From positions 91,946,001 to 92,010,000 of the forward strand of contig OZ024741.1 in NCBI GenBank assembly GCA_964016885.1: a stretch of 64,000 bases of DNA, read 5' to 3'. Positions within the stretch are counted from its first letter, which is position 1. Each line of letters opens with the position of its first letter. The notes beneath the pieces are model-generated. The model searched no databases. It had not been told where the DNA came from and saw nothing but the letters and a program-made list of their open reading frames with translations. Made by a program: the position numbers and the translations under genes. Positions 24,776 through 37,912 of this stretch are shown piece by piece. The DNA is from Eledone cirrhosa. Lineage: Eukaryota.

Positions 24776-24852
24776 TCTCCTGAAGAGTCTGTTACTCTAG
24801 ATTCATCCTAACAATAGGATATCTAAAAATACGGACGAAACCATGGTAGAGA
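24776..24852 (+). ncRNA. Hammerhead ribozyme with extended stem II
   Basis: tctc CTGAAGA gtctgt...acggac GAAA ccatgg TA| gaga. Confidence 0.82.
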
Positions 24853-25013
24853 ATTGGTGCTCTGAAATAGCGATATATATATGAATATATATATATAGTG
24901 TATTTTGAATACACTCTATGCTTAATTAAAAGCATTTCGAAGACCTTACGCTATTGTTTTAGAGTAGTGATAGTCTCACTGACTTTAAATGTTCAGCAAA
25001 CAGGGGGAGATAA

Positions 25014-25058
25014 AGCTGACAGAGCTCTGTTTCGTACTTTTTGGTACTTATCAAAGCT
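25014..25058 (-). ncRNA. Hammerhead ribozyme, U3-A8 variant
   Basis: As above, with perfectly palindromic stem III ACAGAGCTCTGT. Confidence 0.8.
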
Positions 25059-25423
25059 AAGTACTCCATCTGTTTGCTGAAAATCATGAATGTATGATTC
25101 TTATAGAATATAAGTACCAAAAAGTACGAAACAGAGCTCTGTCAGCTTTATCTCCTCCTGTTTGCTGAAAATTTAAAGTAAGTGAGACTGTCACTTCTCT
25201 AAAACAATAGCGTAAGGTCTTCGAAATGCTTTTAATTAAGCATACAGTGTATTGCAAAATACACTATATATACATTCATATATATATCGGTATTTCAGAG
25301 CACCAATTCTAATTTTCAATTTCTGCTTGACCGGCAATCGCTCTGTATAATCAGTTCCTGATTATTACTAGAATTCTATAAGAATCAAACATTCACGAAT
25401 TTCAGCAAACAGGTGGAGTACTT

Positions 25424-25468
25424 AGCTTTGATAAGTACCAAAAAGTACGAAACAGGGCTCTGTCAGCT
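25424..25468 (+). ncRNA. Hammerhead ribozyme type I, U3-A8 variant
   Basis: agct TTGATAA gtac caaaaa gtac GAAA cagggctctg TC| agct; distal stem I 25400-25413/25478-25491. Confidence 0.8.
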
Positions 25469-25634
25469 TTATCTCCCCCTGTTTGCTGAAAATTTAAAGT
25501 AAGTGAGACTGTCACTACTCTAAAACAATAGCGTAAGGTCTTCGAAATGCTTTTAATTAAGCATACAGTGTATTGCAAAATACACTATATATACATTCAT
25601 ATATATATATATATATATATATATATATATATAT

Positions 25635-26140
25635 ATAAAAATACAAATATAGATTCAGCGAGAATATAAGCTTTAGGTATAATGATCGAACAAGGAATAT
25701 CACGTTATCAACAGGTATTTTGCTCCGTATCAAATTTGTGAGTGACACAGAGGCAAGTTAAACCACGTGTGGAAATCACAAGGGGAAATAACCCCAGATT
25801 TTGGCAAAAGAATTCAGTAAGTGTATACCATGCAAAAAATTGCATAAATAGCACAAATCGAATAAGTTCTCAACCGGGAGATTTTGAAAATAAACTTATA
25901 CAATTAACCTAGCAATAAAAATTATTAACAAGTTAATTGTAAGATACGAGAGATTAATACAAATATAGATTCAGCGAGAATCGCATTTCGGCGGGTAGGA
26001 AAGACGAAACGAAACGCAAAAATCATAAATGACACTGGCAAAGTGGTCAATAGTTAAAACCAGAGCCAAACAATATGTTAAGAAGCCATACAAAACTGAA
26101 AAAGTGGTCAAGAAAGCATCAACCAACTAAGCCAAAAAGT
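25635..26140. repeat. (TA)n-flanked unit with an internal direct repeat at about 317-nt spacing; related to 36210-36600
   Basis: AATACAAATATAGATTCAGCGAGAAT at 25640 and 25957; AGCGAGAATCGCATTTCGGCGGGTAG inverse at about 36560-36587. Confidence 0.55.
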
Positions 26141-26683
26141 ATATATATATATATATATATATATATATATATATATATATATATATATATATACATATGC
26201 TTGTGTGTCTGTGTCTATATATGTATGTTTGCATGCATGAATGAATACACTAAGCTTTAGATTTAGTAGAATGTACAACCACTGAATCCAGCTATTTGTA
26301 CTATCGTATATTTTGGTTTCTAGTAATTCCCTGGGGAATTGGTTGACCAAATGCTTTGCTTAATTGCTTTATTTCTTTTTTCTCTTAGATTTCAGGTATT
26401 TTTTGAAAGCAAACATTGGTCCCTCAAATACTACAGTGGGCTCTGCAATGCTACGGTGGGCTCTTACAATGCTACCATGGGGCCCATGGGGCCCACCTGC
26501 CATTGGGCAACCTGGCAACCTGGCCAGTCCGCCACTGCACACACACAAACACACATACATATACACACACACATATATTTATATATAAATAAATATATAT
26601 ATGTGTGTGTGTGTGTGTATTGTCATATTTGGGGAGGATCATGTTATCCAAATATTGCCAAAAATAATGATAAAACACTCACT

Positions 26684-34005: not shown

Positions 34006-35659
34006 TGTTATCCCATGTACTAACAACTAGGCCTCTTCGGGACCTTGTTTACATTTGTCAATAAACCTTATTTTATTTATAGTTTACTTATTTGCACTTA
34101 ATGACTTTATAATTTTTGGTATTATCATATAGCCTGTATATGTGTTTGTGTGTATGTGTGTGTGTGTATGTGCGTATATATATATATTTATATATATATA
34201 TATATATATATATATATATATATATATATATATATTTATATTTATAACGCACTGCAAATGTGGTTTCTTTGTCACATATTGTGTCACGCTGATTCTGCGT
34301 AAGCATCACGTTGAGGATACACTTGTTTGTAGAATTCCCAACCATTTACACGCTAATCCACAAATAGGATGTTCTGTTGAACGACTGAATGCTCGTCGTC
34401 GAATCCGACAGAGAATCCATCATATTAAGTTATTACCATTTGTAGGCAAAAACTGTGTGGATGTTGGTCCAGCCTTGTCACTCACTGTGTCATACTGATT
34501 CTGTCTGAGAATTGTGTCAAAGCTACACGCGACTGTGGAATACTCAACCATTTACATTTTAGTTCATGAGTCGGTTGTTCGGTTGATGGCACGCCTGAAA
34601 GCTGAATGCCGAAATCAAAAAAGGATTATTCATAATTTACTGATGATTTTTAACCACTTTCTACTAACATCATTTTTTTAACAAAAAGAACCATGAGAAC
34701 ATCTATTCAAAATGTGTGTTAATATATTTGTCAGAATAAATATTGGTTTGCGTTAGTTTTTATTTTATATATACGATTTGACTGCTCCATCTTTGTCTCA
34801 TAAAAAAGAAATATTTTATAAGATAAAAGCAAGAGCCAAAGTGTTTCTAAAAGTACAGTAAAGAAACGTGGTCACTATTTAAACCTGAAGTATAGCGGTG
34901 AATTAAACGAAAGAGTTCAATTCATAAATTCATCACTGACCTGATGAGAAAAATAGAAGAATAACGAAGGTAAAGATCTATTTTTTACATTTTTACATAA
35001 ATTTCTTGCAATGAACATACTTATATTTGCCACGGTGTCAGCCAATCTGATATATTTAATGGGATGGTTATTGCTATATAGAAGCACCATAAAAATGTAT
35101 GAAATATTGATTTCTTACGAAGGCATAATGCCAATTTTCTATAGAGTTGAATGTATCGAGCTTAGAACACACACACACACACACACACACACACGCACAC
35201 ACACACACACACACACACACACACACACACACACACACACACACACACACACACACACACACACACACACACACACACACACACACACACACGCACGCGC
35301 GAACACACATTGCTATATATATATATATGTGTGTGTGTGTGCGTGCGTGCGTGCGTGGTCATTAATTATAAGACCTCGGAGAATTGAAACTGCAAATTCA
35401 TCCATTTTAGGCAGAATTTCAACTCTGAAACAAGACAGGCTTAAATATATTCTTGCACCCATTAAAAGCCAACGTTAACCGAAGATAGGGATGGATACCA
35501 TTCATATTTCAAAGCAGTTGTCTCATGTGTATATATATATATATATATATATATATATATAACGAAGGAAATGTGGTAAGGAACCAGATGGACCATAACG
35601 CACCAAAGTACTCAATACTTAGGGTAGTAGAGTGGGTAATAGGAACAAGTAGGACCCAT

Positions 35660-36198
35660 ATATATATGAATGTATGTATAGTATATTTGGCAATATAGCG
35701 TATGTTTATTTTAAAACATTTAGAAGACAATACGCTATCAGTTTTAAAGTAGTGACTATGTCAATTACTTCTTTTCGGCGAAAGAAGGGAGAGAGGCTGA
35801 CAGTCTGTTTCACATACAGTATATTGCCAAATATACTATACATATATTCATGTATACATCGCTATTTCAGAGCACCAATTCTAATACCTATTTTTTGCTG
35901 GACTGGCAATCGCTCTGTATAATCAGCTCCTGATTATTACTGGAATTCTATAAGAATCCAGCTTCTATAATTTTCGGCAGAAGCAGGGGTGTGCCTGGCT
36001 CTGATGAACGCCAATCAGCGTGAAACAGACTGTCAGCCTCTCTCCCTTCTTTCTCCGAAAAGAAGTAAGTGACATAGTCACTACTTTAAAACTGATAGCG
36101 TATGGTCTTCTAAATGTTTTTAATTAAACATACGGTATATTGATAAATATACTATACATACATTCATGTATACATCGCTATTTCAGAGCACCAATCCT
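35660..36198. mobile_element. Retrozyme-like unit, family A' (diverged subfamily with canonical HHR core)
   Basis: Inverted piece 35660-35812 plus tandem 35813-36198; shares CGCTATTTCAGAGCACCAATTCTAA etc. with family A. Confidence 0.82.
35997..36038 (+). ncRNA. Hammerhead ribozyme type I (canonical core)
   Basis: ggct CTGATGA acgc caatca gcgt GAAA cagactg TC| agcc. Confidence 0.85.
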
Positions 36199-36841
36199 TA
36201 TATATATATATTAGATTCTCGCATGTGCTTTCATAACCTGCAAGAGTCTGCCGACAGAAGAACAAAATTCCGTTGAGAAAGCGATGCCTTGTTCGGTCTC
36301 TATACCAAAAGCTTATTTTTATAAGCAGACAGTATTATTGATTTAGGCGTTGCAGAAACCAACTTTCGGAACATTCCATCTTCCAATGAAGGGTCCGGGT
36401 AAATATTTCAATCATATCTCATTTTGTTTGACCCGTTTTAGCTTGTTCGCTTTTTTGGCTAAGGTGGTTAATGGCTTCTTAACCATCGTCTCAGCGTGTA
36501 TGACCTTTTTAACTTATGTTTATAACTCTGGTATCTTCTTCAATTCCATCGAGCTAATTTCTACCCGCCGAAATGCGATTCTCGCTAAATTATATGTTTA
36601 TATATATATATATATATATATATATATATATATATATATATATATATATATATATATATAACATATATATATATATTATAAATTGGTGCTCTGAAATAGC
36701 GATATATATATAAATATATATATATAGTGTATTTTGCAATACACTGTATGCTTAATTAAAAGCATTTTGAAGACCTTCCGCTATTGTTTTAAAGTAGTGA
36801 CTATGTCACTTACTTCTATTTTCAGCAAACAAGGGGAGATA

Positions 36842-36885
36842 AGCTGACAGAGCTCTGTTTCGTACTGTTGGTACTTATCAAAGCC
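36842..36885 (-). ncRNA. Hammerhead ribozyme, U3-A8 variant
   Basis: ggct TTGATAA gtac caaca gtac GAAA cagagctctg TC| agct. Confidence 0.8.
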
Positions 36886-37253
36886 TAGCACTCCTCATGT
36901 CTGTTGAAAATTATGAATGTTGGATTCTTATAGAATTCCAGTAATAATCAGGAACTGATTATACAGAGCGCTTGCCGGTCCAGCAAAAATGTTTGCTGAA
37001 AATAGAAGTAAGGGACATAGTCACTACTTTAAAACAATAGTGCAAGGTCTTCAAAATGCTTTTAATTAAGCATACAGTGTAATTCAAAATACACTATATA
37101 TACATTCATATATATATCGCTATTTCAGAGCACCAATTCTAATTTTCAATTTCTGCCTGACCGGCAACCACTCTGTATAATCAGTTCCTGATTATTACTG
37201 GAATTCTATAAGAATCCAACATTCATAATTTTCAGCAGGCAGGAGGAGTGCTA

Positions 37254-37297
37254 GGCTTTGGTAAGTACCAACAGTACGAAACAGAGCTCTGTCAGCT
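37254..37297 (+). ncRNA. Hammerhead ribozyme, U3-A8 variant with A6G mutation
   Basis: TTGGTAA core, otherwise identical to 36842-36885. Confidence 0.65.
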
Positions 37298-37912
37298 TAT
37301 CTCCCCTTGTTTGCTGAAAATAGAAGTAAGTGACATAGTCACTACTTTAAAACAATAGTGCAAAGTCTTCAAAATGCTTTTAATTAAGCATACAGTGTAT
37401 TGCAAAATACACTATATATACATTCATATATATATATATATATATATATATATATATATATATATATATTAGACAATATATTGTTGGAAAAGAAAAGCAG
37501 CAATTAACGTGAGTCGAAAAGAAGACAAACAGTTGAAGAAAGTGTGAGGTTAAACAAGGGAAACAAAAGAAACAAAAGAAAGTACGAAGTGGACAAATAG
37601 GTTTATTTACAATAGTTTATAACTATGCCTATTAATCCGTATGGTGAGAAAATTGGGTCCCACGTGCTGGCCTCCCCACAGCCACGGCGGAGGATGATAA
37701 GGGAGATGCGCTGGAAGAGCCATTGCAACTCGCGAGGCTCACACCTGCGGTTAGATAACTCAGTGCCTATGGTGGTGAATAGGGAGGTAGCCCTAGGGCC
37801 AGCTGAAAGAAATGAAAAAGAAAGTTTCGTTTTAAGCTCTTTTTCAAAGTAGATTAAAAGAAGAAAAAGTATAAGAATGAAATGTGAAAAATCGGAGAAC
37901 TATATCAAGTTA

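Follow-up and report, generated by a model that had tools for sequence, protein, structure and literature searches.

A retrozyme-like family of hammerhead repeats with U3-A8 and C3-G8 cores in the genome of Eledone cirrhosa

The closest described systems are the retrozymes without long terminal repeats (non-LTR retrozymes) of corals, mussels and the axolotl, which have non-coding units of 150–450 bp with a low GC content (<50%) and a hammerhead ribozyme of type I (Cervera and de la Pena 2020, PMC7229834). For the axolotl retrozymes cleavage as a double hammerhead is established, and circularisation by RtcB has been obtained in vitro (PMC7229834). Related motifs are found in Penelope-like elements (PLEs): about 1,300 hammerheads with the core pair U3-A8 are reported in PLEs of Schistosoma mansoni (Cervera and de la Pena 2014, PMC4209133). 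This variant was reported in nature, and as already active in vitro, by Perreault 2011 (PMC3088659); the pair between positions 3 and 8 forms only in the catalytically active conformation (PMC3884650). Here we describe a hammerhead repeat found in a window of 64,000 nt of Eledone cirrhosa (contig OZ024741.1, positions 91,946,001 to 92,010,000, forward strand), an animal with a microsatellite-rich genome of 3.0 Gb. All coordinates given below are those of the window.

The window has five type I hammerhead motifs, spread over three separate insertions of a non-coding repeat of about 320 nt (24850-25637, 35658-36200 and 36682-37469); no related sequence is found between 25640 and 35650. The repeat agrees with the definition of a non-LTR retrozyme in every sequence feature that we have tested. 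We consider it likely that it is one: its hammerhead would cut multimers to unit length, and the monomer would be circularised and copied into (TA)n by the enzyme of a PLE, most probably of Neptune type. Motif anatomy, copy number, the subfamily tree, compensatory changes, insertion architecture and multimeric arrays are observed directly; cleavage, circularisation and the identity of the helper are inferred. The insertions are built as follows.

24850-25109, minus strand: locus 1, copy in inverted orientation which is truncated at its 5' end but retains the whole U3-A8 hammerhead (core 25048-25054, cleavage predicted after 25018), with tail 24853-24870.
25110-25290, plus strand: locus 1, partial tandem unit which starts at core A6, with half a hammerhead (helix III 25131-25142, C17 at 25143).
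25291-25603, plus strand: locus 1, full unit of the young U3-A8 subfamily, with its 3' end running into (TA)n (to 25637).
25400-25491, plus strand: extended type I hammerhead of this full unit, with distal helix I 25400-25413/25478-25491, proximal helix I AGCU/AGCU, core 25428-25434, helix II 25435-25448, GAA 25449-25451, palindromic helix III 25452-25463 and C17 at 25464.
35658-35813, minus strand: locus 2, inverted partial copy of the C3-G8/ACGC subfamily, with only the 3' half of the hammerhead.
35812-36199, plus strand: locus 2, short partial unit, then a full unit with a C3-G8 hammerhead, tail 36178-36195, then (TA)n.
35971-36061, plus strand: hammerhead of locus 2 (core 36001-36007, C17 at 36034).
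36682-36989, minus strand: locus 3, inverted near-full copy of an early-branching U3-A8 subfamily (core 36875-36881, C17 at 36846, tail 36682-36699).
36990-37430, plus strand: locus 3, partial unit which starts downstream of the hammerhead, and full unit with A6G (core 37258-37264, C17 at 37293).
37413-37469, plus strand: locus 3, 3' end in (TA)n.

The motif scan gives the U3-A8 core UUGAUAA at 25428(+), 25054(-) and 36881(-). The motif at 37258(+) has UUGGUAA, which is an A6G lesion. These four motifs have the same helix II, GUAC/GUAC, while 36001(+) has the C3-G8 core CUGAUGA and helix II ACGC/GCGU. The cut is predicted 3' of C at 25464, 25018, 36846, 37293 and 36034. Cores and stems of this kind had been described in the sequence-only reading at 25014, 25424, 36842, 37254 and 35997; the scan recovers all five motifs, and the numbers quoted there are ends of helix I, 4 nt outside the scan coordinates. 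The core elements N3 U4 G5 A6 N7 N8 A9, G12 A13 A14, A15.1-U16.1 and H17, with a Watson-Crick 3-8 pair, are present throughout, except in the 37258 copy (A6G) and in the half motif at 25110. Loop 2 starts with CAA in 36/36 aligned copies, a feature partly fixed by the search pattern. The five motifs have folding z-scores from -2.7 to -6.6. Rfam gives no match in the window at the gathering threshold.

Successive cleavage sites lie 321 nt apart (25143 to 25464), which is the repeat period. The unit has a GC content of 34% and no coding frame, its longest open stretch being 60 codons; as a circle it is predicted to be self-paired (z -6.6). The locus maps show no LTR-like layout, with no scan aimed at LTRs, primer-binding sites or polypurine tracts. 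The proposal of a retrozyme-type element thus agrees with what we find: a 321-nt non-coding unit with a type I hammerhead, present from dimers to multimers. The copies at 36881 and 37258 form a separate early-branching subfamily, with 86–90% identity to those at 25428 and 25054. The distal stem quoted before for the 36001 copy carries a private mismatch; most of its relatives have UCGCCGAAAA.

The family is widespread in the genome. A pattern with most of the core fixed, and with positions 3, 7, 8 and helix II free, has 3,542 exact-frame matches and none for the reversed control, so that the five motifs of the window are not due to chance. These counts are lower bounds on the number of copies. 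Among the matches 1,420 (40%) are U3-A8, 1,923 are C3-G8 and 199 have other cores: 94% have one of the two pairs. U3-A8 can hardly be called rare, as had been claimed: besides this 40% it is found in 62/64 matches of an unrelated PLE hammerhead discussed below, and in the Schistosoma mansoni motifs of PMC4209133. From 130 loci we obtained 134 motifs, of which 116 have enough flanking sequence for a tree; they fall into nine subfamilies. A tenth one, D, was found later (51 matches, 50 of them U3-A8), so that there are at least ten in all. Subfamily D has been amplified with an A-A mismatch at 10.1-11.1, and some others with U-U. In metagenome contigs the retrozyme pattern has no match.

The three helices of the ribozyme, of which helix I is the open one, are supported by compensatory changes. 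In 36 chosen copies across subfamilies both sides have changed in 12 of the 26 named helix pairs, including all four pairs of helix II, and 96% of 921 cells are paired. The covariation score is 0.336, compared with 0.193 in shuffled alignments (0/500) and at most 0.10 in slid registers; shared ancestry inflates these figures and the counts are not independent, which weakens them as evidence for the retrozyme. Among nine subfamilies 97 of 298 columns vary, and of the 12 core columns only 3 and 8 do so, jointly, as expected from the covarying 3-8 pair that had been noticed in the window; the search patterns required most of the core and are biased toward intact cores, a further weakness. No amplified subfamily with a broken core is seen.

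Individual copies behave differently. With the core left free, 22 of the 100 matches listed (of 975) have scattered core lesions. Their rate, counted by hand, is about 2.7% per site, equal to the background of 2.8% in the rest of the unit. Inserted copies therefore decay neutrally, and conservation belongs to the transposing lineages. The family-wide compensatory changes argue for selection on the ribozyme fold, as had been proposed, but this selection has acted on the source or transposing lineages and not on the copies in the window.

The insertions have a characteristic architecture. In 126 loci we have found an inverted partner in 66 and a partial direct tandem in 46; 100 end in (TA)n, 80 of them directly and 20 after a tail. 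The tail has about 30 nt and is optional, and the 5' ends are variable, as in 5' truncation. All the hallmarks of PLE insertion are thus present: 5' truncation, partial tandem, inverted 5' copy, optional tail and (TA)n target, the same pattern that is described for PLEs (Craig 2021, PMC8557442). Rare alleles are shared within one insertion in 20/233 cases, compared with 72/10,476 between loci, about 12-fold; in a second subfamily the values are 10/153 and 108/8,255. Short tandems have up to 8 private alleles common to all their units. Repeated copying of a single template would account for such sharing; a duplication of the DNA in place would leave the same signs.

A candidate helper comes from the insertion ends, which were compared with PLE proteins in two screens (266 + 77). 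Three junctions to Neptune-type PLE sequence have no TA in between (L083, L174 and L221); the last two both meet the 5'-truncated end of one second Neptune family. There is one such junction to a Hydra-type PLE (L021), and three further PLE matches lie at a distance or past a TA tract. Co-insertion by template switching would be the simplest reading of these junctions. An autonomous Neptune-type family is available in the genome, with 150 scored matches at 94–100% identity and frames of up to 1,273 aa. We lean, with some reserve, toward a Neptune-type PLE as the helper. The labels Hydra and Neptune are partly our own assignment. Otherwise they follow the motifs of PMC8557442: ADKT and CxCX5C for Hydra, a CX4CxxC linker for Neptune/Nematis-type. 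PLE frames have no match in Pfam. The autonomous Neptune-type family just mentioned, seen at L133-L161, is young and very abundant (19,514 candidates). Its copies end in (TA)n, before which a tail of about 55 nt is optional, and carry a minimal hammerhead of their own. Remnants of Hydra-type PLEs with ADKT and CxCX5C motifs are found in the window at 50876-52902(-), 44318-45860(+), 11331-12050(+) and 22185-22955(-); the 3' ends of Hydra-type elements in the window have no homology to the retrozyme unit by self-BLAST. We have not classed the repeat as derived from PLE terminal repeats (pLTRs), because neither these ends nor the single Neptune family compared show such homology. The possibility that the unit is the terminal repeat of a longer autonomous element was also considered and rejected: clusters spaced by 1–3 kb are tandem arrays or contain a Tc1-like insertion.

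Elsewhere in the genome there are true dimers and arrays of 16, 19, 30+, 40 and 42 full units. Long head-to-tail arrays are those of L174 (G000:C1:82.39 Mb), L175, L176/L216 and L210-L215, with up to 42 full units in 14 kb. Their units differ by 5–7% from the majority of their own array, compared with about 3% for dispersed copies, and some arrays have higher-order repeats. The idea that long arrays are built of cleavage-dead units was discarded: critical positions have 6.5% and the others 6.0% (P 0.38), 42 of 157 array units are intact where 32 are expected from background, and changes shared by an array are not enriched in the motif (4/20, P 0.38). With a stricter rule for helix III only 15/161 array units are intact, a value driven by one change common to the 42 units of one array. 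A G-to-T change at position 15.4 of helix III, which breaks the palindrome, is found in all units of L210/L211 (42/42), L196 (3/3) and L208 (4/4), and in less than 10% of dispersed controls. These loci may be a weak-cleaving sublineage.

In the mechanism that we propose the hammerhead would cut multimeric transcripts to unit length, in the U3-A8 lineage likely as a double hammerhead formed by two copies. The monomer RNA would then be circularised, and the reverse transcriptase and endonuclease of an autonomous PLE, most likely of Neptune type, would probably insert copies of the circle into (TA)n tracts. Helix III is palindromic or nearly so in every subfamily; in one of them its loop AGCU has become GGCC. 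In secondary-structure models, which ignore tertiary contacts, its self-duplex has -7 to -24 kcal/mol, while the hairpin has -1.8 kcal/mol at best. The lowest-energy fold of an isolated motif has the 5' strand of helix I and U3-U4-G5 paired with helix III. Helix III between copies has a predicted probability of 0.58–1.0 in 5/8 natural tandems with both sites scored (three more have no recognisable site), and it dominates modelled linked pairs of the main U3-A8 and of three C3-G8 subfamilies. The long palindromic helix III is thus predicted to favour a double hammerhead in several subfamilies.

It is quite conceivable, though we give it less than even weight, that the ribozyme cleaves as a monomer: a helix III of 4 bp with a tetraloop, together with tertiary contacts between loop and bulge, would suffice, as in the retrozymes of corals and mussels, the palindrome being incidental. 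Helix III of one copy can indeed close 3–4 pairs, invertebrate retrozymes cleave as monomers (PMC7229834), tertiary stabilisation is omitted from our models and two cleavage sites on one strand are present in only 10/126 loci. Against it stand the energies given above and the pair at the end of the loop, which cannot form in a monomer: it has changed from A-U to G-C, G-U is also seen and A-C is absent among the 100 matches listed (88/6/6/0), all of it a single event.

The window loci are a different matter. None of them has two complete motifs in direct tandem. In locus 1 the upstream motif at 25110-25143 begins at A6, without U3-U4-G5 and the 5' strand of helix I; loci 2 and 3 have one sense motif each. 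Whole-locus transcripts of all three are modelled as long hairpins, with a helix III probability of at most 0.03, so that the inverted copies would sequester the ribozymes. When the inverted part is removed from locus 1 the two helix III segments cross-pair in the model (P 1.0), hence cleavage is conceivable for a transcript which begins close to 25110. We regard the three loci as likely inert end products. The tandem monomer of about 321 nt put forward in the sequence-only reading is correct as a period, while the release of unit-length RNA is not predicted at these loci.

Several results weigh against a cleaving, Neptune-driven retrozyme. In the models the catalytic fold of single motifs lies 1–9 kcal/mol above the ensemble; the double hammerhead is not favoured in 3/8 natural tandems, nor in the 36001-type and D subfamilies (P 0.00–0.08). 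Hammerhead_HH9 of Rfam is found below threshold at 25411-25486, 24996-25071 and 35984-36055, with 23 bits vs 52 (E 0.004–0.012). In Xenopus 1/9 predicted retrozymes was cleaved in vitro, according to a preprint (bioRxiv 10.64898/2026.07.22.740005). The Neptune junctions could be later insertions with deletion of the target, and BLAST of the unit with the 3' end of one Neptune family (30 loci) finds no homology.

The history of the 3-8 pair can be followed on the tree. C3-G8 subfamilies surround the main U3-A8 clade, the sister of which is a C3-G8 subfamily with a CUGAGGA core and the same GUAC/GUAC stem II (90 matches, support 99/93), and not the 36001 type, which had been taken for the sister and is among the most distant subfamilies. 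Since this C3-G8 sister keeps GUAC/GUAC, the change in the core and the change in stem II are separate events and not changes in concert, as had been suggested. Subfamily D groups with the 36001 type (support 100/99). On a tree of 51 rows the 3-8 state requires two changes, and a single clade of all U3-A8 rows is rejected (p-AU 2e-6 when only columns 3 and 8 are dropped, 1.2e-5 when the whole hammerhead is dropped). The tree is unrooted and does not separate gain-gain from loss-regain. U3-A8 is thus placed in two branches of one retrozyme family. We interpret it as a tolerated Watson-Crick swap of the tertiary 3-8 pair, which was amplified in two backgrounds. At L115 (G000:C1:69827669) one inverted copy of a C3-G8 subfamily has both U3 and A8, probably by private mutation; the sense partner of this copy is C3-G8.

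The same pair is found in an unrelated PLE of the window.

16030-16330, minus strand: U3-A8 hammerhead-like motif (core 16134-16140) whose helix III is a palindrome. A Hydra-type PLE, with an endonuclease frame at 16626-17105, minus strand, has this motif at its 3' end.

In the genome 62/64 exact-frame matches to this motif are U3-A8 and 2 are C3-A8.

U3-A8 may instead have a single origin in this family, a patch of about 11 nt having then been carried into the other background through template switching or conversion; in that case the two branches would not test the 3-8 pair independently. We find this rather unlikely. Positions 3, 7 and 8 do change together on the main U3-A8 branch, to the letters of subfamily D, and template-switch junctions are many in the family; an intermediate C3-U7-G8 with the GUAC stem has 0 matches to the genome pattern. 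The patch has only 3–4 nt of flanking identity, however, U7 is also the state in other C3-G8 subfamilies, and the flanks of the main clade have no other D-type letter, monophyly being rejected even without the hammerhead, as given above.

A broader idea is doubtful: that two independent switches of the pair from C-G to U-A in this family, and a further one in the unrelated PLE ribozyme, took place because U3-A8 is favoured here in PLE-driven spread, cleavage being tuned to two-copy transcripts so that circles survive, and that the retrozyme-Neptune chimeras record a Neptune reverse transcriptase which switched onto circles and copied them for many rounds. Two narrower ideas were abandoned. One weakening change per lineage, with C3-G8 never together with G10.1-C11.1, is ruled out by 90 such matches (a narrower pattern had given 0). 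Selection of U3 to relieve a misfold with the AGCU loop is not general: the in-silico swap costs about 3 kcal/mol in the main U3-A8 clade and 0.1–0.5 in D, and U3 reduces the penalty in every C3-G8 subfamily too.

It is improbable, in our opinion, that the repeat is a SINE-like (short interspersed element) passenger of PLEs, spread from linear RNA, with a fold that would be retained because it binds the PLE protein or stabilises the RNA, cleavage being weak or dispensable. Naiad PLEs do spread without hammerheads (PMC8557442), minimal PLE hammerheads cleave poorly (PMC4209133), and subfamily D has been amplified with its A-A mismatch, some others with U-U. Yet the 3-8 pair, formed only in the active conformation (PMC3884650), stays Watson-Crick through two switches, and an amplified subfamily with a broken core is lacking among those seen. 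A dead satellite spread by DNA-level duplication, with compensatory changes due to templated hairpin repair, is very improbable: shared variants and higher-order repeats in long arrays are signs of such duplication, but the insertions number in the thousands, are dispersed, truncated at the 5' end and anchored in (TA)n, and have inversions of PLE type, and the isolated 3-8 pair is not a pair of a DNA hairpin.

Other features of the window may be mentioned. More minimal hammerhead-like motifs of C3-G8 type are found at 47008(+), 58139(-), 13390(-) and about 45790(+); in the first three an ATAT run forms helix III. Another short repeat flanked by (TA)n, with a strong hairpin, is often beside retrozyme insertions (35562-35655, 47190-47300 and 57790-57900). 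At 28800-29788(-) two frames without a Pfam match, which we take to be a transposase-like remnant, are unrelated to the retrozyme though they lie within 24849-37430. A contig of 126 nt over the 25400-25497 hammerhead has a depth of 398, compared with 2–21 for other listed pieces, in a read set of unspecified kind, so that it has no bearing on expression.

When the family is compared with known systems, the element class, the U3-A8 variant and the link to PLEs have each been published. In a literature search over open-access articles, supplements apart, we found no description of this retrozyme family, of a retrozyme with U3-A8 or of a 3-8 switch that occurred more than once; hammerhead families are listed in the supplements of PMC4209133, PMC7229834 and PMC8557442, where such cases may be present. 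Metazoan non-LTR retrozymes also range from monomers to long tandem arrays, with thousands of copies and several ribozyme families per genome, and the U-U at the base of helix II is shared with HHR_Amex2 of the axolotl (PMC7229834). They differ in that 40% of the copies are U3-A8 here and most loci are truncated or inverted insertions of PLE type; their RNA is known, whereas the present element is known from DNA sequence. Its helix III is a palindrome of 8–12 nt, while the metazoan norm is 1–2 bp with a loop of 2–4 nt (PMC4209133).

Co-occurrence with Neptune- and Hydra-type PLEs and the monomer, dimer and multimer layout are also found in the retrozymes described as non-autonomous PLE derivatives by Li, Clavereau and Pollet (2026, bioRxiv 10.64898/2026.07.22.740005). 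The vertebrate (Xenopus) elements of that preprint are tied to PLE terminal repeats by homology; here homology was not found and the link consists of insertion anatomy and three junctions. The Cercyon PLE hammerheads of Schistosoma mansoni (PMC4209133) and the natural variants of Perreault 2011 (PMC3088659) have the same U3-A8 pair and belong to PLE-related repeats, but they are minimal motifs or scattered examples, whereas we have a canonical extended motif with the switch placed twice on a subfamily tree. PLEs with an endonuclease (EN+), of the Neptune and Hydra clades, share (TA)n targeting, 5' truncation, partial tandems, the inverted 5' copy, a hammerhead in the repeat and an optional tail, of 30–40 bp in their case (Craig 2021, PMC8557442); unlike them, the retrozyme has no reverse transcriptase or endonuclease frame and the whole element has 320 nt.

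Two findings appear to be new: a single family has U3-A8 in two of its branches, and its long helix III palindrome favours, in the models, a double hammerhead in several subfamilies. The tree of ten subfamilies allows single changes of the ribozyme to be ordered, including the two appearances of U3-A8 and the changing palindrome of helix III. Such natural, near-isogenic ribozymes are a test system for the cleavage rate that a retrozyme needs. The Neptune junctions offer a concrete candidate for the enzyme which mobilises animal retrozymes.

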